Assembly: GCA_934230325.1 (NCBI GenBank)
Contig: CAKQEP010000004.1
Span: forward strand, 21,840-85,839
Length of the DNA: 64,000 nucleotides
Direction of reading: 5' to 3'
Source: an uncultured Clostridia bacterium
GTDB taxonomy: Bacteria; Bacillota; Clostridia; Christensenellales; CAG-314
The notes under the pieces were generated by a model. That model searched no databases. It saw only the letters and a program-made list of their open reading frames with translations, and had not been told where the DNA came from. Below are positions 3,314 through 38,478 of this stretch, one piece after another; the stretch's first letter is position 1, and each line of letters starts with the position of its first letter. The position numbers and the translations under genes were made by a program.

Positions 3314-3480
3314 TGTGAGAGTGCCTCCTGTTATTTTTTTCGCATTATATCACGATAAAATCGCGTTGTCAACGCTGCTGAGGCGTTTTATAAAGAAAAA
3401 ACCGACATCGCAATATTGATATGTACTCTAAAAGTCAGACGCTCAGAGAATCGCATATTTTTTTACGCGAAAAATCGAAA

Positions 3481-3539: not shown

Positions 3540-3626
3540 TGGTGCGGATGACAGGACTTGAACCTGCACATCTTTGACAATACTAGAACCTGAATCTAGC
3601 GCGTCTGCCAATTCCGCCACATCCGC
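3540..3626 (-). tRNA. tRNA-Leu (anticodon CAG), class II with long variable arm, CCA encoded
   Basis: The reverse complement GCGGATGTGGCGGAATTGGCAGACGCGCTAGATTCAGGTTCTAGTATTGTCAAAGATGTGCAGGTTCAAGTCCTGTCATCCGCACCA folds as a cloverleaf. Acceptor GCGGATG/CATCCGC, anticodon stem CTAGA/TCTAG with loop TTCAGGT, T-loop GGTTCAAGTCC. Confidence 0.93.
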
Positions 3627-3840: not shown

Positions 3841-3845
3841 ATAAC

Positions 3846-3962
3846 AAAGTCTTTGGGGCAAGGTGAAATTCCTTACCGGTGGTATAGCCCACTAACAACC
3901 TTTTTCAGGTTGCCGAGCAGTTGAAATTACTGCGCCGACGGTACAGTCCGGATGGAAAAAGT
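3846..3962 (+). promoter_or_regulatory. FMN riboswitch (RFN element)
   Basis: Contains the conserved RFN cores: TTTGGGGCAAGGTGAAATTCCTTACCGGTGGTATAGCCCAC ... GCGCCGACGGTACAGTCCGGATGGAAAAAG. It lies directly upstream of a riboflavin-transporter gene. Confidence 0.85.
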
Positions 3963-3990
3963 CTTTTGTGTTTTTATGCGCAAAAAACGC

Positions 3991-4011: not shown

Positions 4012-4728
4012 ATGTCAAAAAAAGATTATTCGAGCAAAAGTCAAGAGCAAAACAACAAGGTTGAAATCGCTATAGAGCCAAAAAACGATGAGAAAGAGCA
4101 GTCGACAGTCGTACAAAAAAAATCTGTTAAGCATATAGCGGCGGCAACGGCGGCAAAGGTGGCTATACTCACTGCGCTTGCATGGATATTTTATATGTAC
4201 GTTAAGGTTAAATTGCCTTTTGTTTTTCCCGAGTTTTTGGAAATGCAAATATCCGATTTGCCGGCACTTTTGGGCGGATTTGCGTTAGGGCCGTTGTGGG
4301 GGTGCGTGATAGTTGTTTTAAAATGCTTGTTAAAAATGCCTTTTAGCGGTACTGCGTGCGTAGGGGAATTAGCCGACATATTTGTGGGCGTGGCGTTTGT
4401 ACTGCCTGCGTCGCTCGTTTATAAAAAACATAAAACCAAAAAAGGCGCGTTTCTCGGACTATTGATAGGTATGGCGGCGGCAGTAGTCGTATCTTTGCTT
4501 GCCAACCGATTTGTGCTCGTTCCGTTTTATGTCAAAGCATTTTTTGGCGGAAGTTTTGCGCCGCTTCTCAATATGGTGTCGCCGCTTTACCCAAAAGTGA
4601 CGGAAAGCACCTTTTACCTTTGGTATCTCGGACTGGGCGTTTTACCATTCAACATTATCAGATGCGCGTTAAGCGGTGGTTTAACCTTTGCTTTGTACAA
4701 AAGTCTATCGCGTTTACTGCATATATAG
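4012..4728 (+). CDS. ribU: Riboflavin transporter, ECF S-component RibU, with ~45 aa hydrophilic N-terminal extension
   Basis: FPEFLEMQISDLPALLGGFALGPLWG and VLPFNIIRC resemble B. subtilis RibU motifs, and an FMN riboswitch lies upstream. Start moved from the track's 3952 (inside the riboswitch) to the ATG at 4012 behind GGAGGG. Confidence 0.8.
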   Translation: MSKKDYSSKSQEQNNKVEIAIEPKNDEKEQSTVVQKKSVKHIAAATAAKVAILTALAWIFYMYVKVKLPFVFPEFLEMQISDLPALLGGFALGPLWGCVIVVLKCLLKMPFSGTACVGELADIFVGVAFVLPASLVYKKHKTKKGAFLGLLIGMAAAVVVSLLANRFVLVPFYVKAFFGGSFAPLLNMVSPLYPKVTESTFYLWYLGLGVLPFNIIRCALSGGLTFALYKSLSRLLHI

Positions 4729-5192: not shown

Positions 5193-5769
5193 TACGTCGT
5201 CAAAAAACCTATACGTTATGGTTTTAGACGGACAAAAAACAACAAAAACCGTTATGACGGACAATCAGCGGCAACATAGCGTCGTGCTTAACAAAGCGAT
5301 ATCGGACACTTTAAAAAAAGCAGATTGCGCGTTAAAAGATATAGACGTCTATGCCGTTTGCGTCGGTACGGGAAGTTTTACGGGGATACGCGTTGGCATT
5401 TCCGTTGCAAAAGCGTACAATTTAGTTTTTGGAAAAAAGTATGTTGCCGTCAACTCTCTTTGCTCTCTCGCATATACTAAAAAAGGACGCGTAAATTGTT
5501 TGATGGACGCAGGCAAAGGTTGGTATTTTGCCGTATACGACGGAGCAAACGAGATCGAGCCGCCGCATCTTATAGAGGACGAACAAGCGCAAAAACTTGC
5601 ATCTTTGCCCGATACCGTTATTTTTGACGATACTGCCGACTACAGCGAACAGATAGAAAAGCAAGTTCGCGACAAAATCGCAGCAAATAACTTTTGCGAC
5701 AAACTCACTCCGCTGTACATACGTGTATGCCAAGCAGAAGAGGAGCGGCAAAAAGGGGTTATTAAATGA
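5173..5769 (+). CDS. tsaB: tRNA t6A37 biosynthesis protein TsaB
   Basis: 198 aa. MKTLVIDTSS.., ..VGTGSFTGIRVGISVAKA.. (YeaZ/TsaB signature). Overlaps the tsaE end. Confidence 0.85.
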   Translation: MKTLVIDTSSKNLYVMVLDGQKTTKTVMTDNQRQHSVVLNKAISDTLKKADCALKDIDVYAVCVGTGSFTGIRVGISVAKAYNLVFGKKYVAVNSLCSLAYTKKGRVNCLMDAGKGWYFAVYDGANEIEPPHLIEDEQAQKLASLPDTVIFDDTADYSEQIEKQVRDKIAANNFCDKLTPLYIRVCQAEEERQKGVIK

Positions 5770-32479: not shown

Positions 32480-34309
32480 ATGATTAAAAGAACGGATTTG
32501 AGAAACGTAGCCATCATCGCCCACGTCGATCACGGCAAGACCACTCTCGTAAACGAGATGTTAAAGCAGGGCGGAGTATTCAGAGAAAATCAGCAGGTGG
32601 CGGACAGAGTAATGGATAGCAACGCGTTGGAAAGGGAGCGCGGCATTACGATACTTTCAAAAAACACATCGGCGTATTACAAAGGCATAAAAATCAATAT
32701 CATAGACACGCCCGGTCACGCAGACTTTGGCGGAGAAGTAGAAAGGGTATTAAAAATGGTCAACGGCGTACTCATTTTGGTAGACGCGGTAGAAGGGCCT
32801 ATGCCTCAGACGAGATTTGTGATGCAAAAGGCGTTGGAGTTGGGGCATAAACTTATTTTGGTTGTCAACAAAACGGACCGTCCCGACGCGCGTCTTAACG
32901 AGGTAGAAAACGAGATACTCAACTTGCTGTTAGAGCTCAATGCGTCGGAAGATCAATTTGACAGTCCGATAGTATATTGTAGCGGGCGCAACGGCACTGC
33001 GAGTCTTGACTATCACGAACAAGGCAAAGATTTGACGCCGCTGTTTGAAGCGATAATAAATCATTTTGAGCCGCAGGAAGTGGACGTAGACGGACCGATG
33101 CAAATGCTTATATCTTCTATCGACTACAACGATTACGTCGGGCGTATCGGCATCGGCAGGGTAGAACGCGGCAAAGTCAAAGTCAACCAACCCGTTTCTA
33201 TATGCAATTACCACGATAAAAGCACGGTAGCGCAAGGCAAGATAGTATCTGTTTTTCAGATAGACGGACTCAACCGCAAACCCGTAGAAGAAGCGATAGC
33301 CGGCGACATAGTTTGCATCGGCGGATTAGAAAACGTCACCATCGGGGACACTGTATGCGATCCGACGGCAGTAGAGCCCGTATCGTTTGTCAAAATATCC
33401 GAGCCGACGGTAGAAATGTTGTTTTCCGTCAATGACGGACCTTTTGCGGGCAAGGAAGGTCAGTTTGTAACTTCTCGGCACTTACATGACAGACTGTTTA
33501 AGGAAATGTTGAAAGACGTATCTTTAAAGGTTTACCCGACCGACACGACGGACAGTTTTCGCGTTTGCGGAAGGGGAGAAATGCACTTGTCAATTCTTAT
33601 AGAAACGATGCGCAGGGAGGGTTACGAATTTTTGGTAGGACCGCCCAAAGTCATGTACAGAATGGTTGACGGCGTAAAAACCGAGCCTATCGAGCGACTC
33701 GTATGCGACGTTCCGGAAGACAAAACCGGCGTAGTATTTAGCAGTATGGGGGAGCGGAAAGGCGAATTGTTGCACATGGAAAACATCGGCAACCGCATAC
33801 GTCTTGAATTTGCCGTTCCCGAGCGCGGGCTATTCGGTTACAAAAACATATTTTTGACCGACACTCGAGGAGAAGGCGTCTTCAACACGGTATTTATGGA
33901 TTATCAGCCGTACAAAGGCGACATAGAACGCAGAAACACCGGCAGTCTTGTTGCCTTTGAAACGGGCGAAGCGGTGACTTACGGATTATACAACGCGCAA
34001 GGCAGGGGCAGTTTGTTTATCGGCGCAGGCACTCCCGTGTACGAAGGAATGATAGTCGGCGTAAGCCCCAAAGCGGAAGATATTTCCGTCAACGTTTGCA
34101 AAAAGAAACATCAAACAAACATGCGCGCGGCGGGTAGCGACGATGCAATGCGTTTAGAAACTCCAAAACGTTTGACTTTGGAAGAAGCGATGGAGTTTTT
34201 AAACGACGACGAACTGATGGAGGTCACACCCAAAACCGTTCGTCTTCGCAAAAGAATTCTCAACACCGAGCAACGCCTAAAATACAAAGCGAGAATGGCA
34301 GATAAATAA
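32480..34309 (+). CDS. typA: Translational GTPase TypA/BipA
   Basis: 609 aa. ..NVAIIAHVDHGKTTLV.., DTPGHADFGGEVER, NKTDR. GGAGAAA RBS. Confidence 0.95.
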   Translation: MIKRTDLRNVAIIAHVDHGKTTLVNEMLKQGGVFRENQQVADRVMDSNALERERGITILSKNTSAYYKGIKINIIDTPGHADFGGEVERVLKMVNGVLILVDAVEGPMPQTRFVMQKALELGHKLILVVNKTDRPDARLNEVENEILNLLLELNASEDQFDSPIVYCSGRNGTASLDYHEQGKDLTPLFEAIINHFEPQEVDVDGPMQMLISSIDYNDYVGRIGIGRVERGKVKVNQPVSICNYHDKSTVAQGKIVSVFQIDGLNRKPVEEAIAGDIVCIGGLENVTIGDTVCDPTAVEPVSFVKISEPTVEMLFSVNDGPFAGKEGQFVTSRHLHDRLFKEMLKDVSLKVYPTDTTDSFRVCGRGEMHLSILIETMRREGYEFLVGPPKVMYRMVDGVKTEPIERLVCDVPEDKTGVVFSSMGERKGELLHMENIGNRIRLEFAVPERGLFGYKNIFLTDTRGEGVFNTVFMDYQPYKGDIERRNTGSLVAFETGEAVTYGLYNAQGRGSLFIGAGTPVYEGMIVGVSPKAEDISVNVCKKKHQTNMRAAGSDDAMRLETPKRLTLEEAMEFLNDDELMEVTPKTVRLRKRILNTEQRLKYKARMADK

Positions 34310-34532
34310 AACGGCAATAACAAAAAATAGCATTTCTTTTTTATGCAAACGACAGTTTGACTTAATTTCTTTTTTCTGTGATTACGGTATAATGTATTCA
34401 AGAAATAAAAAATAAGCCGAAATGAGGCACCGGTTTTGATATATCAAAAAATATTTTAAGAGCATTTGAAAAAACATTTAACATGAAGGGTATAATAACC
34501 GAGTGATTCAAGAATATTATTCCTTAATATAT

Positions 34533-34569
34533 AAAAGATAGCTTGCTTCTTTGAAGCAAGCTATCTTTT
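34533..34569. terminator. Perfect bidirectional terminator (ABC exporter gene; also the first hairpin downstream of typA)
   Basis: 17-bp stem AAAAGATAGCTTGCTTC / GAAGCAAGCTATCTTTT with a 3-nt loop. Confidence 0.85.
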
Positions 34570-34592
34570 AGTTGAGTAAAGTTCGATAAATT

Positions 34593-36206
34593 TTAACTCG
34601 GATTGTTATGTACTAATTTTGTGTCCTCAATTGAATAAATGTCTTCGCAAAAACTTAAGGCTCTTTTGTCGTGCGATATGATAATTACTGTTTTATTCGA
34701 AAAATTTTCTTTAATGAAGTTCATTATTTTACTCACAAAATTGGCATCTATGTAATTTATTGGTTCGTCAAATATATATAAATCGGCATTTCTATACAAT
34801 CCTCTTGCCAATTGGATCATTTTTGCTTCACCACTTGATACATTTGAACCACTTGTCTCAATAATTGTTTCTATATCGAAAAACTTATTGACAGTTATCT
34901 GTTTTATAAATTCCTCAGAGAATACACTTTTATCTTTTTTTTCATTTCCCAACGCAATATTATCTAATACCGAAGCGTTAATTAAATCAACAGAAGCTGG
35001 AATCAACGCTATTTTCTCCCTTAAAGCAGTAGGGTGTATATCTTTAATATTTTGGTTGTTGTATAGGACTTCACCTTCATAATCGATAATTATTCCTGAT
35101 AAGATATTTGCCAATGTAGATTTTCCAGAGCCATTTGCGCCTATTATACCGATTTTTTGCCCTTTTTCTATCTTTAACGTTACATCATTTAAAAGTATTC
35201 TTTCGTCTATGGAATAGAATAGATTTTTTACAATCAAATTATTTAGAGGAGATATTGAACTGACGGTGTAATTTATTTTATTATCGGAATCTGTTATTTC
35301 GTTAACTCTGTTTTTATATATTTTGTATTTTGTATAGTCTTTTGGGTAACCCAAAAAGAATTCTACTGGCACCCATAGTTTAGAATAGTACAGTGAAAAA
35401 GAAGTAAGCATACCTAATGTTATACTTCCGCCCAATATCATTCTGCCGCCACAAAAGTAAATAACAAAACTTGCCAAATTGAGCAATCCCGTTACTAATA
35501 GGTAGTCATAAACGGTTTCCAACCACATTTTTTTCTTTATTTTGTTCATGGTCATTCCCATTTCTTTTTTTAATCTATTTTCGGCAAATGCTGTGGAGTT
35601 GTTGGCTCTCAGCATATAATTATTATTGATAGTTTCTTCAAACTCCGTACTGATTTTTTCCTGAAGTTTTGTTATTTCTTTGGTGTATTTTTTTACCTTT
35701 TTACTAAAGAAAATTTGCACAATAACAAAGAGAGGAAAAACAGCCAATAATAGCAAAGTGTATAAATAATTTTGTAATAGCATTATTACGACCATACTTA
35801 TTCCGTAGATAATATTTGTAACAAACTTAACCTTTTTTTCTAAAATAAAAGGCCGAATTTTTTCCACGTCCTCGTTAAAACGTTGCAAATAAAACCCTGA
35901 CGATTGTTTTTGCAGTTTCTTATAATCGGTTATATTGATATGTCGAATCATTTGTTTTCTTTTTTCATAAATATAATTTTCTTCAATAAGAGCTTTTACG
36001 AAATAAGAGAAAGAAAGGGATACTACAAAGAGTACGATTGCAATCAAAAAAAACATTCCGTTTTTATTGATTAAGGAAATATCTTTTTGTATTGTTGCAG
36101 CATCAATCAACCTCTGTGTTATTATAGGAATTACAAGGCTCGCAATGAGATTGAATACAATCAAGACGCAATATATAATTTTTTTATGTATATCTTTTTG
36201 TTTCAT
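34593..36206 (-). CDS. ABC transporter, fused permease/ATP-binding half-transporter (type I exporter architecture), strongly AT-rich
   Basis: 537 aa. N-terminal ~300 aa with about 5-6 TM helices. The NBD has Walker A GANGSGKST, Walker B LYIFDEP and H-loop IISHD. The signature reads VSSGE (not LSGGQ) and the Q-loop position reads IPAS (no Gln). Confidence 0.85.
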   Translation of the reverse strand: MKQKDIHKKIIYCVLIVFNLIASLVIPIITQRLIDAATIQKDISLINKNGMFFLIAIVLFVVSLSFSYFVKALIEENYIYEKRKQMIRHINITDYKKLQKQSSGFYLQRFNEDVEKIRPFILEKKVKFVTNIIYGISMVVIMLLQNYLYTLLLLAVFPLFVIVQIFFSKKVKKYTKEITKLQEKISTEFEETINNNYMLRANNSTAFAENRLKKEMGMTMNKIKKKMWLETVYDYLLVTGLLNLASFVIYFCGGRMILGGSITLGMLTSFSLYYSKLWVPVEFFLGYPKDYTKYKIYKNRVNEITDSDNKINYTVSSISPLNNLIVKNLFYSIDERILLNDVTLKIEKGQKIGIIGANGSGKSTLANILSGIIIDYEGEVLYNNQNIKDIHPTALREKIALIPASVDLINASVLDNIALGNEKKDKSVFSEEFIKQITVNKFFDIETIIETSGSNVSSGEAKMIQLARGLYRNADLYIFDEPINYIDANFVSKIMNFIKENFSNKTVIIISHDKRALSFCEDIYSIEDTKLVHNNPS

Positions 36207-36265
36207 CTTTCGTTCTCCTTATTAAGGTATTTGGCCTTCAGCATAAATTGCGTCCATTTTTTCAT
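36203..36265 (-). CDS. Unannotated 20-aa ORF (MKKWTQFMLKAKYLNKENER) overlapping the ABC start codon
   Basis: AAAGGAGA RBS 7 nt upstream of the ATG at 36265. Its TGA stop overlaps the ABC ATG (ATGA). The ABC gene's own SD (AAGGAGAA) lies inside this ORF. Below the 60-aa cutoff of the supplied track. Confidence 0.45.
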   Translation of the reverse strand: MKKWTQFMLKAKYLNKENER

Positions 36266-36351
36266 AATTATCTCCTTTAAAATTTATTTTTCATAAAATA
36301 TATTTTGTATTAAATCATAGTAGGATTTCTTTTATCTGAAGATTTTTTATT

Positions 36352-36370
36352 CCACCGCTCCAAGCGGTGG
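36352..36370. other. GC-rich stem-loop CCACCGC-TCCAA-GCGGTGG in the sORF/ABC intergenic region
   Basis: 7-bp perfect GC-rich stem in an otherwise very AT-rich stretch. No U-tail on the minus (coding) strand; TTGCTTTT on the plus strand. Confidence 0.6.
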
Positions 36371-36387
36371 TTGCTTTTCGCTAAAGG

Positions 36388-36422
36388 CTACAAAACAAAG
36401 AGAGGAGCTGTTATACTCCTCT
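36388..36422 (-). terminator. Rho-independent terminator immediately after the 35-aa ORF
   Basis: Minus strand AGAGGAG TATAACAG CTCCTCT followed by CTTTGTTTTGTAG. The stem overlaps the TAG stop (36421-36423). Confidence 0.65.
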
Positions 36423-36528
36423 ATTTATTGGCAAACATCGATAAAAGGCATTCAAATAAATTGTTAATACACAGGCTTGTATTAACGAGATACGATATAT
36501 GTCGATTTCTCTTCATATATTGAATCAT
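36421..36528 (-). CDS. Unannotated 35-aa ORF (MIQYMKRNRHISYLVNTSLCINNLFECLLSMFANK)
   Basis: Hand translation of the minus strand. GGAGA RBS 5 nt upstream of the ATG at 36528, a consensus promoter ~30 nt upstream, and an intrinsic terminator overlapping the stop. Below the track's cutoff. Confidence 0.5.
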   Translation of the reverse strand: MIQYMKRNRHISYLVNTSLCINNLFECLLSMFANK

Positions 36529-36556
36529 AAAAATCTCCAAACTTCAACTACTTTTA

Positions 36557-36585
36557 ATTATATCATATCATATACAGATTGTCAA
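36557..36585 (-). promoter_or_regulatory. Perfect consensus sigma-A promoter driving the 35-aa ORF (and probably the ABC gene by read-through)
   Basis: Minus strand TTGACA (36585-36580), exactly 17 nt, TATAAT (36562-36557), with AT-rich UP-like sequence upstream. Confidence 0.75.
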
Positions 36586-36695
36586 TAAATTTTCATATAA
36601 AAATAATTTTAACTGTTTGATGGAAAAACTAATTAATTTAGAACTTCAATTGCTATTTTATAAACTCGTAAGGTAATGTTTTAATATTTAAGCAT

Positions 36696-36722
36696 AAAAA
36701 AGCGCTCGCAAGGGTGCTTTTT
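36696..36722. terminator. Weak A/T-flanked hairpin at the right edge of the AT-rich segment
   Basis: AAAAAGCGC (36697-36705) pairs with GTGCTTTTT (36714-22), with only 4 G/C-containing pairs including a G-T wobble. Could be a remnant terminator. Confidence 0.35.
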
Positions 36723-36818
36723 GCGTTAAGTAAAAAAAGACGGTTATCTAAAAAACGCGCTGTTTTTGTTTGTCAAGGTTTTCAACGTAAAAAATATTTA
36801 AAAAATTCCCTTTTTGTC

Positions 36819-36847
36819 TTGCAAAATATGGCGATATTTGTTAAACT
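36819..36847 (+). promoter_or_regulatory. Promoter of pyrG
   Basis: TTGCAA (36819-36824), 17 nt, TAAACT (36842-36847). Confidence 0.55.
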
Positions 36848-36858
36848 ATTAAAAGTAG

Positions 36859-38478
<1,620 letters not shown>

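Follow-up and report, generated by a model that had tools for sequence, protein, structure and literature searches.

Does a short open reading frame (ORF) with textbook expression signals encode a peptide that matters, or does it serve the genes behind it? The question is raised by a 35-codon ORF on the minus strand of a 64,000-nt stretch (hereafter the window) of contig CAKQEP010000004.1, from an uncultured Clostridia bacterium. The host is a sporulating member of Clostridia from the human gut, and its TypA shares 79% identity with proteins of metagenome-assembled genomes labelled 'Clostridia bacterium' and 'Subdoligranulum sp.'. Downstream of the ORF is a gene for an ATP-binding cassette (ABC) exporter. 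An earlier note, made from the sequence alone, proposed an exported peptide handled by the ABC protein, a type-I-toxin-like peptide, or a regulatory peptide. The last option is favoured here, but in the form of a leader ORF. We infer that the act of translating this leader modulates a leaky terminator, and that the product of the ORF is unimportant; it is probably neither an exported peptide nor a toxin. In full, a promoter, a translated leader ORF and an embedded terminator, in a layout like that of bmrB of Bacillus subtilis, would now control an orphan exporter that probably serves immunity. We give this reading a little better than an even chance of being correct.

The expression signals are on the minus strand, as the earlier note had described (Table 1). 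The TTGACA-17 nt-TATAAT promoter, the GGAGA 5 nt before the ATG, and the TAG inside a hairpin stem followed by a U-tract are all present. The promoter spacer ends in TGA, which provides an extended -10 element (TG). The leader before the ATG is ~22 nt, counted from the predicted start site, and not ~25 nt as first estimated. The A and G of the TAG (36423..36421) form the first two stem bases of the hairpin. The population sample consisted of 8 haplotypes with 97-99% identity. Among them the -35 element, the Shine-Dalgarno (SD) sequence and the ATG are invariant, and the -10 element is TATAAT, TATACT or TACAAT depending on the haplotype. The promoter is not the only perfect consensus promoter in the window, contrary to the first description. 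Two perfect TTGACA-N16-18-TATAAT sequences are present, against 0.02 expected per window. The second, with a 17-nt spacer, is at 3344-3372 on the minus strand, close to a tRNA gene (3543-3626, minus strand) and a flavin mononucleotide (FMN) riboswitch (3845-3967, plus strand, 105 bits).

The peptide resembled no recognised family, and the database searches agree. Rfam gave no match at the gathering threshold, the best E-values in 36100-36900 being 0.55-10, far below the cut-offs. Pfam and NCBIfam searches with the 35-aa peptide, its 52-aa form and a 20-aa peptide encoded downstream gave no match either.

The comparison with other strains indicates what the 35-codon ORF is. An exhaustive phmmer search with the 35-aa peptide against 1.84 billion representatives returned one match, a 52-aa protein whose residues 1-35 differ by 1 substitution. 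Its cluster has 8 members: seven have 52 aa and the eighth has 49 aa. The stop occurs in none of them, and all 8 derive from the same pyrG-side locus in other strains. Every other recovered allele has GAG for the TAG of the window, and the frame runs on through the terminator hairpin, ending ...ANK-ERSITAPLFIFNTKYIL. The DNA alignment resolves two haplotype clades. GAG is found in both, and thus TAG is a derived nonsense mutation. On this alignment the 35-codon ORF is a derived, truncated copy of a species-specific 52-codon leader ORF, and the distal third of that ORF (the C-terminal 17 residues) is lost in the window. The 52-codon frame is open in 7/8 haplotypes and ends just ahead of the SD sequence of the next gene.

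The distribution of the ORF is narrow. The comparison loci fetched from other genomes carry L-numbers, and coordinates given with an L-number refer to that locus. An exact look-up found neither the 35-aa nor the 39-aa form on record. The invariant 24-mer of the ORF had 0 matches in JGI metagenome and viral scans. A tblastn search of the 52-aa ORF against the sister clusters L007, L037-L050 and L049 gave noise only. The earlier note had suggested looking for homologous small ORFs in related genomes; phmmer and tblastn recovered only the ORF's own cluster at the same locus. As far as these searches reach, the 35/52-codon ORF is confined to one locus of one species.

Three hairpins are predicted in the leader. 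HP1 and HP2 precede the terminator, which reads AAAGAGAGGAG-loop-CTCCTCTCTTT followed by GTTTTT, occupies codons 35-47 of the 52-codon alleles and is found in all 8 haplotypes. Of the leader polymorphisms, S18N, L19 and T40A are in loops, K35, S38N and F44 are at the ends of stems, and Y4C creates a G-U pair. Both polymorphisms of the HP2 stretch, S18N and the synonymous change at L19, sit in the loop, and the Y4C allele replaces an A-U pair of HP1 with G-U. All three hairpins form together in the minimum-free-energy fold, and the z-score of the whole-leader fold is -4.4. The predicted free energy of the terminator is -21 kcal/mol in the strains with an intact cluster and -14.8 kcal/mol in the window. 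It is weaker in the window because the G-to-T change creating the TAG breaks one stem pair. In a simulation of the ribosome footprint, the terminator was disrupted only with the P-site at approximately codon 34 or later.

The following mechanism is proposed. Most transcripts from the strong promoter would end at the hairpin and U-tract, at ~36391-36400. A ribosome on the distal part of the ORF, or one paused at the TAG in the window allele, would cover the 5' arm of the hairpin and favour read-through. The terminator would be blocked by direct ribosome occlusion, not by an alternative RNA fold. Read-through transcripts of the window would cross a 77-nt insert to the downstream genes. The exporter would then be translated by coupling to a 20-codon ORF through an ATGA overlap. 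The ORF and the ABC gene appear to belong to one transcription unit, as originally supposed.

Table 1. Features of the locus in the window and precursor genes in the comparison loci.
Feature	Coordinates	Strand	Description
Predicted sigma-70-type promoter	36557..36585	-	TTGACA 36585..36580, 17-nt spacer, TATAAT 36562..36557; scan score 12/12
Shine-Dalgarno GGAGA	36534..36538	-	Followed by five T, then ATG at 36528; read directly from the sequence
35-codon ORF with TAG	36421..36528	-	Encodes MIQYMKRNRHISYLVNTSLCINNLFECLLSMFANK; read as truncated allele (GAG to TAG, codon 36) of the 52-codon leader ORF
Hairpin HP1	36495..36520	-	ATATATG ... CATATAT, codons 3-12; predicted in 8/8 haplotypes
Hairpin HP2	36463..36486	-	GTTAATACA-N6-TGTATTAAC, codons 15-22; predicted in 8/8 haplotypes
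Intrinsic-terminator-like hairpin and U-tract	36391..36426	-	Stem 36422..36401, AGAGGAG-TATAACAG-CTCCTCT, tail CTTTGTTTTG; from terminator scan
Insertion, 77 nt	36315..36391	-	Directly behind the terminator hairpin; only in the window allele, absent from 14/14 other leader-carrying loci
20-codon ORF	36203..36265	-	MKKWTQFMLKAKYLNKENER; own good SD; ATGA overlap with ABC start; in-frame maturase remnant
ABC exporter, 537 aa	34593..36206	-	Pfam ABC_membrane and ABC_tran, fused; no C39 peptidase domain
Deletion scar, 162 nt	34586..34592	-	Right after the ABC stop; precursor gene removed (alignment with L032, L036)
typA/bipA	32480-34309	+	Island flank
pyrG	36862-38478	+	Other island flank
Precursor	L032:4385-4492, L036:2039-2146		MLVKVVRNKFMNLSIMSQAILMSKDSCCGGRHVIC; species of the window; 28 nt past the ABC stop
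Precursor	L037:4347-4457		MKKLVVIRPRYSDLGLMKQAIRMSKDSCCGGRAAIQ; after the ABC gene
Precursor	L041:~4373-4462		MLVIREKIKIDILRQSIMSSKDSCCSARS; between maturase and ABC
Precursor	L045:2848-2943		MKIIRKARKTHSIIRGSVMFSKDSCCPARSR; upstream
Precursor	L007:~5315-5419		...KIIRHKLPNISIMKQAIIMSKDSCCSGRSRVLPE
Precursor	L050:3372-3467		MIKIIKKAQKSKSILKSSIAFSKDSCCSQRS
Precursor	L069:~3414		MKTLKKATSTHSIIRGIVAFHKDSCCGARS

A strong promoter followed by a terminator would yield an abundant short RNA, and the ~150-nt terminated transcript might itself be a small regulatory RNA acting in trans or in cis, the ORF being irrelevant. The three conserved hairpins and the fold z-score are consistent with this. However, Rfam gave no match, the sequence is limited to one locus of one species, no target was identified, and a small RNA would not need the conserved SD sequence and ATG. 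We regard a regulatory RNA as very improbable.

Our reading of the ORF depends on the operon around it. The ORF lies within an AT-rich island (34310..36700) between typA/bipA and pyrG, with ~25-31% G+C against ~48% in the flanks in the composition profile. A hairpin, AAAAAGCGCTCGCAAGGGTGCTTTTT, flanked by A- and T-runs, is at 36700-36730 between the promoter region of the island and the pyrG promoter and can be read on both strands. It resembles a terminator that works in both directions, and it may once have served typA, from which the insertion of the island would have cut it off.

In loci L026-L031, 26 nt separate the 52-codon ORF from the next gene, which encodes a radical S-adenosylmethionine (rSAM) protein of 439 aa and has a stop overlapping the ABC start. 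The intact gene is L026:2685-4001. Its product is an rSAM/SPASM maturase of peptides that are ribosomally synthesized and then post-translationally modified (RiPPs), with an N-terminal region like a RiPP recognition element. The top NCBIfam match is TIGR04463, at 203 bits against a cut-off of 525. Further matches are to the geopeptide maturase, CefB and Clo7bot families, and the protein is below the cut-off of every curated family. The closest relative with a solved structure in PDB is CteB. Pieced together from several loci, the complete operon consists of the promoter, the 52-codon ORF with its internal terminator, the rSAM/SPASM maturase, the ABC exporter, and a precursor of ~35 aa ending in SKDSCCGGRHVIC. 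The operon is small and horizontally acquired, and the 52-codon ORF is its first, promoter-proximal frame.

In the window this operon has decayed. The maturase is reduced, the precursor is deleted, codon 36 of the leader is TAG, and 77 nt have been gained; only promoter, leader and ABC exporter are still intact. The 20-codon ORF consists of the first 7 codons and the last 13 codons of the maturase gene, as judged from the intact gene in L026, and the deletion occurred between the 13-nt direct repeats ATGCTGAAGGTCA and ATGTTGAAGGCCA. Such a stump is easily mis-annotated as a second small peptide gene. The 162-nt deletion that removed the precursor gene is common to the window, L023 and L024, and the gene is retained in L032 and L036. 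A different deletion is seen in L034/L035 (L034:2501-2740), where the end of the 52-codon ORF (49 aa) is fused to the 3' end of the maturase gene. Frameshifted, split maturase genes are present in L029 (2685-4011) and L050 (3498-4803). Inactivation of the maturase occurred several times independently; at the locus of this species, at least two different deletions and one frameshift account for its loss.

The ABC gene has a different history. It is intact in every locus variant, with a ratio of non-synonymous to synonymous polymorphism (pN/pS) of ~0.2-0.3 among haplotypes. The top NCBIfam matches of its product are peptide and bacteriocin exporters, all under the cut-off. Among 5.8 billion clustered proteins it has only three close relatives, two at 98-99% identity and one at 37%. 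A scan of GTDB representative contigs returned only distant ABC proteins (19-28% identity), indicating that the species or the island is not among the representatives reached in this way. In L013-L022 (human-gut contigs) the gene is found with only ~60 nt of the maturase 3' end, in an integrase/WYL element adjoining rpoA-rplQ. The order in L013:2112-6806 is a phage-type integrase, a 155-aa ORF, a WYL-domain protein, a 38-aa ORF and the ABC gene. This ABC gene is 98.55% identical over 1658 nt, and the leader ORF is absent. Its presence in a second genomic context indicates that the exporter moves or recombines as a cassette. The promoter, leader and exporter are retained together in nearly all decay states; the exporter is alone in L013-L022.

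The repeated loss of the maturase and the precursor while the exporter is kept suggests that non-producers keep the exporter for immunity, and from this we infer an immunity function of the ABC exporter. The promoter-leader-exporter unit would be retained for export of, or immunity against, the peptide of conspecific strains with the full cluster.

The peptide of this system is encoded by another gene. The maturase has ~20 homologues at 37-60% identity. Every maturase context fetched contains an ABC protein and a small peptide with a conserved C-terminus. These precursors are ~29-36 aa long, end in ...[AMF][SFH][SK]KDSCCxxR and are conserved across eight related clusters. Their place differs between clusters, and they are found upstream of the maturase, in the space from maturase to ABC, or behind ABC. 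The SKDSCC precursors have no Pfam or NCBIfam model, and a literature search for the SKDSCC motif and TIGR04463 found nothing relevant. The SKDSCC precursor and the rSAM/SPASM maturase, together with either an ABC exporter or an ABC-F protein, appear to constitute an uncurated RiPP family.

The partner is ABC-F and not an exporter in L045 (4316-5851) and L050 (4815-6401), where the top match is 'ribosomal protection-like ABC-F' at 280 and 297 bits, respectively, against a cut-off of 380. The ABC-F partner in two sister clusters is a hint that the SKDSCC peptide may target the ribosome. Searches of phage and plasmid collections with the maturase gave distant homologues only, the best on Sarcina plasmid p5 at 33% identity. 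In that plasmid (Sarcina sp. JB2, NZ_CP051759.1) the maturase is followed by an ABC exporter, and an unannotated upstream ORF (L049:3302-3403) ends in ...LVLIDKCPARA; with its single Cys, it is possibly related to the SKDSCC precursors. In viral contigs, 24 pattern matches to the SKDSCC family were found and none was confirmed.

The leader ORF does not belong to this precursor family. The 52-codon ORF is beside the maturase in the same orientation in L026-L031, but it lacks the C-terminal core motif and is absent from the homologous clusters of other organisms. The basic N-terminus and the likeness of 'SMFANKERS' to 'VMFSKDSCC' had made it a candidate for an SKDSCC-type precursor. This candidate was rejected by three comparisons. 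A hidden Markov model (HMM) of 8 precursors detected the L032 control with E=8e-22 and nothing in 34300-36900 of the window, and it matched no frame of the ORF. Alignment of the precursor profile to the ORF with hhalign gave E=0.9 over 1 aligned column. The DNA comparison of the ORF with the precursor gene showed chance words only. The proposal that the ABC protein exports the product of this ORF is not supported: the cognate peptide of the cluster is of the SKDSCCxxR family, and its gene is deleted here.

The ORF might still encode a true peptide product with bioactivity or a signalling role, for which the ABC protein would be the exporter: a second maturase substrate, a bacteriocin-like peptide, or a pheromone. 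The TAG allele would then be a proper gene-stop-terminator arrangement. The strong promoter and SD sequence and the two Cys residues fit this possibility. The ORF is placed exactly as the precursor genes are in L045, L050 and L069, and a short ORF, a leaky terminator, a maturase and an exporter follow the textbook order of a RiPP operon. The ORF and the ABC gene are also co-retained in all locus variants keeping the promoter region. On the other side, the ORF is unlike the conserved precursor family and absent from all sister clusters, and the ABC cassette occurs without it in the integrase/WYL element. The C-x6-C spacing seen in the window ORF is present but not fixed, as allele L023 has C27Y and so has lost one Cys; the window has lost 17 C-terminal residues. 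Because the common allele has the terminator within the ORF, its terminated transcripts would have no stop codon. A density of amino-acid polymorphism five times that of the ABC gene, and the lack of codon bias, also argue against a functional peptide. We consider a bioactive peptide improbable.

These measures of constraint were obtained as follows. Codon usage was scored as a log-likelihood trained on the maturase and ABC genes of the island. The ORF scores 0.025/codon, while out-of-frame windows average 0.004 (standard deviation 0.058) and in-frame windows 0.182 (standard deviation 0.079). Of the true in-frame windows, 98.5% score higher than the ORF, which also does not surpass its own alternative frames. 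Among the 8 haplotypes, the ORF has 7 amino-acid-changing differences (Y4C, S18N, C27Y, E36stop, S38N, T40A and V45I) and 4 synonymous ones. The density of non-synonymous polymorphism is 5.6% in the ORF and 1.2% in the ABC gene (P=0.002). The density over all sites is 7.1% and 1.9%, respectively (P=0.0007), compared with 9.6% in non-coding DNA upstream of the promoter. Of the polymorphism measures, the densities alone separate the ORF from the ABC gene. All strains with an intact maturase have one single ORF allele; the C27Y, nonsense and 3'-deletion alleles are found only in loci where the maturase is gone. On these data, protein-level constraint on the ORF appears weak.

Weak constraint agrees with a leader whose translation, not its product, would matter, but it also fits an incidental ORF: a strong promoter with a structured 5' untranslated region (UTR) and a constitutive leaky terminator, the ORF being untranslated or its translation having no effect. 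A structured 5' UTR with a leaky terminator is common in peptide-antibiotic operons, ahead of the biosynthetic genes. When the 435-nt intergenic sequence was shuffled, the probability of an ATG-initiated ORF was P=0.33 for a length of at least 35 codons and P=0.07 for at least 52. The length of the ORF by itself is within chance. The missing codon bias, a diversity near the non-coding level, the tolerated nonsense allele, the missing antiterminator and the missing homologues beyond its own locus all agree with an incidental ORF. What stands out is the juxtaposition of promoter, SD sequence and ATG. An invariant GGAGA at ideal spacing before the first ATG of the longest ORF, at that short distance from the predicted start, is unlikely by chance. 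A frame that is open in all but one haplotype and ends just ahead of the next SD sequence has the spacing of a translated operon member. The incidental ORF is a possible explanation, though on balance an unlikely one.

Several points weigh against a translated leader that controls the terminator. The start site, the termination efficiency and the translation of the ORF are all predictions from sequence. Constrained folding found no stable antiterminator, the best alternative for the 5' arm being ~-4 kcal/mol, unlike in bmrB and erm leaders. Transcription can run uncoupled from translation in Firmicutes; the ribosome may then arrive too late, and the hairpin would be a constitutive leaky terminator. 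An upstream leader ORF or terminator comparable to that of the window was not found in the sister clusters L037, L041, L007, L045 and L050, indicating that the system as a rule does without the element. In the ORF, non-synonymous and synonymous differences stand at 7:4 (about 0.42), a ratio indistinguishable from that of the ABC gene (P=0.73), and the true precursor has a codon score of only 0.12, so the codon test is weak for very short genes. As to the operon itself, the L026-L031 loci end inside the ABC gene, and the place of the precursor after ABC was read from L032 and L036.

The third suggestion of the earlier note, a type-I-toxin-like peptide, is not supported. In favour of a membrane-active peptide of a type I toxin-antitoxin-like system, the product is small, its N-terminus is basic, its middle is moderately hydrophobic, and the expression signals are strong. 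The most hydrophobic 23 residues, however, include N, N, N, E, S and T, with a mean Kyte-Doolittle value of ~1.2, under that of a typical transmembrane helix; no clear transmembrane segment is present. Across haplotypes there is no overlapping antisense promoter-terminator pair and no convincing antisense partner, the sole plus-strand terminator-like hairpin being in the window-specific insert. Nonsense, C27Y and 3'-deletion alleles circulate and are evidently tolerated. A toxin of this type is extremely unlikely.

The 77-nt insert carries a GC-rich 8-bp hairpin, CCACCGCTTGGAGCGGTGG, at 36370..36352 on the minus strand. No second copy of the insert was found in the window or any fetched locus. 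The two viral-contig matches to the 19-nt hairpin are unrelated GC-rich coding DNA. On the plus strand the hairpin resembles an intrinsic terminator, CCACCGCTCCAAGCGGTGG followed by TTGCTTTTCG. A 10/12 promoter-like site is at 36151-36179 on the plus strand, inside the 5' end of the ABC gene, and the plus-strand hairpin (36352-36370) is ~170 nt further. An antisense RNA over the ABC start could run from this site to the insert hairpin; such promoter matches are common in AT-rich DNA, and this one is possibly due to chance.

For annotation, the locus demonstrates that expression signals of textbook quality are no proof of a peptide gene. The strain comparison alone revealed the truncated leader, the enzyme-gene stump and the missing real peptide gene. 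The locus records a peptide-antibiotic cluster at several stages of decay within one human-gut Clostridia species: complete; maturase lost, by two deletions and a frameshift; precursor lost; and the ABC gene in an integrative element. The exporter is kept in all these states, which is the pattern expected if non-producers keep immunity. The family of SKDSCC precursor, rSAM/SPASM maturase and ABC protein is a more interesting by-product than the leader itself.

A more specific role of the leader can be imagined. The 52-codon leader would be a ribosome-based sensor of the cluster's own product. If the SKDSCC peptide does target the ribosome, stalling on the leader caused by the peptide of producer neighbours would suppress the terminator and turn on the exporter. 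If so, promoter, leader and ABC gene would be a self-contained inducible immunity cassette, which would account for the survival of exactly these three parts in non-producers like the window strain. We regard such a sensor as a long shot. If the leader is more simply a bmrB-like attenuator, a little-studied mechanism would be extended to a natural-product operon.

The most similar known system is bmrB (yheJ) of B. subtilis, a 53-codon ORF with three stem-loops and a terminator within its coding region, upstream of an ABC exporter (PMC4191407). The bmrB ORF must be translated for efficient, antibiotic-inducible read-through into the ABC exporter genes bmrCD (Reilman et al. 2014, PMC4191407). 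The leader described here is alike in size (52 against 53 codons), in its three stem-loops and in its place upstream of an ABC exporter. A small SD-bearing ORF appears to lie under the operon promoter and directly upstream of the exporter operon, and the terminator is within the leader coding region in the 52-codon alleles; in the window, the stop is in the foot of the stem. Two differences are clear. The bmrB type has a mutually exclusive anti-antiterminator, antiterminator and terminator, whereas the three hairpins here are compatible with one another. The bmrB leader precedes the transporter directly, whereas the leader here originally preceded a peptide-maturase gene. No sequence likeness to bmrB was detected; the search of the 1.84 billion representatives gave the ORF's own cluster alone, although the inclusion of BmrB among them was not confirmed. 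Sequence conservation is not expected among leader peptides of this kind. The window leader may work like bmrB, rather than belong to a bmrB family.

In the pyrL leader of the E. coli pyrBI operon, the ORF spans the attenuator hairpin, and a close-following ribosome physically blocks the terminator. This blocking matches the footprint simulation for the present leader. pyrL uses RNA polymerase pausing sensitive to uridine triphosphate (UTP), and there is no evidence for such pausing here. The host here is a member of Clostridia, for which tight coupling of transcription and translation is uncertain.

The ancestral operon resembles the sactipeptide and ranthipeptide clusters (CteB, PapB, TIGR04463 'very short Cys-rich') in having an rSAM/SPASM maturase, a short Cys-containing precursor and an ABC protein. 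The window differs from these systems in having neither maturase nor precursor, and its ORF is not of the precursor family. What remains corresponds to the general concept of orphan bacteriocin immunity or export genes that are retained after the loss of the producer genes. As expected from this pattern, the ABC gene is intact under purifying selection, and the maturase and precursor genes were lost by separate deletions.

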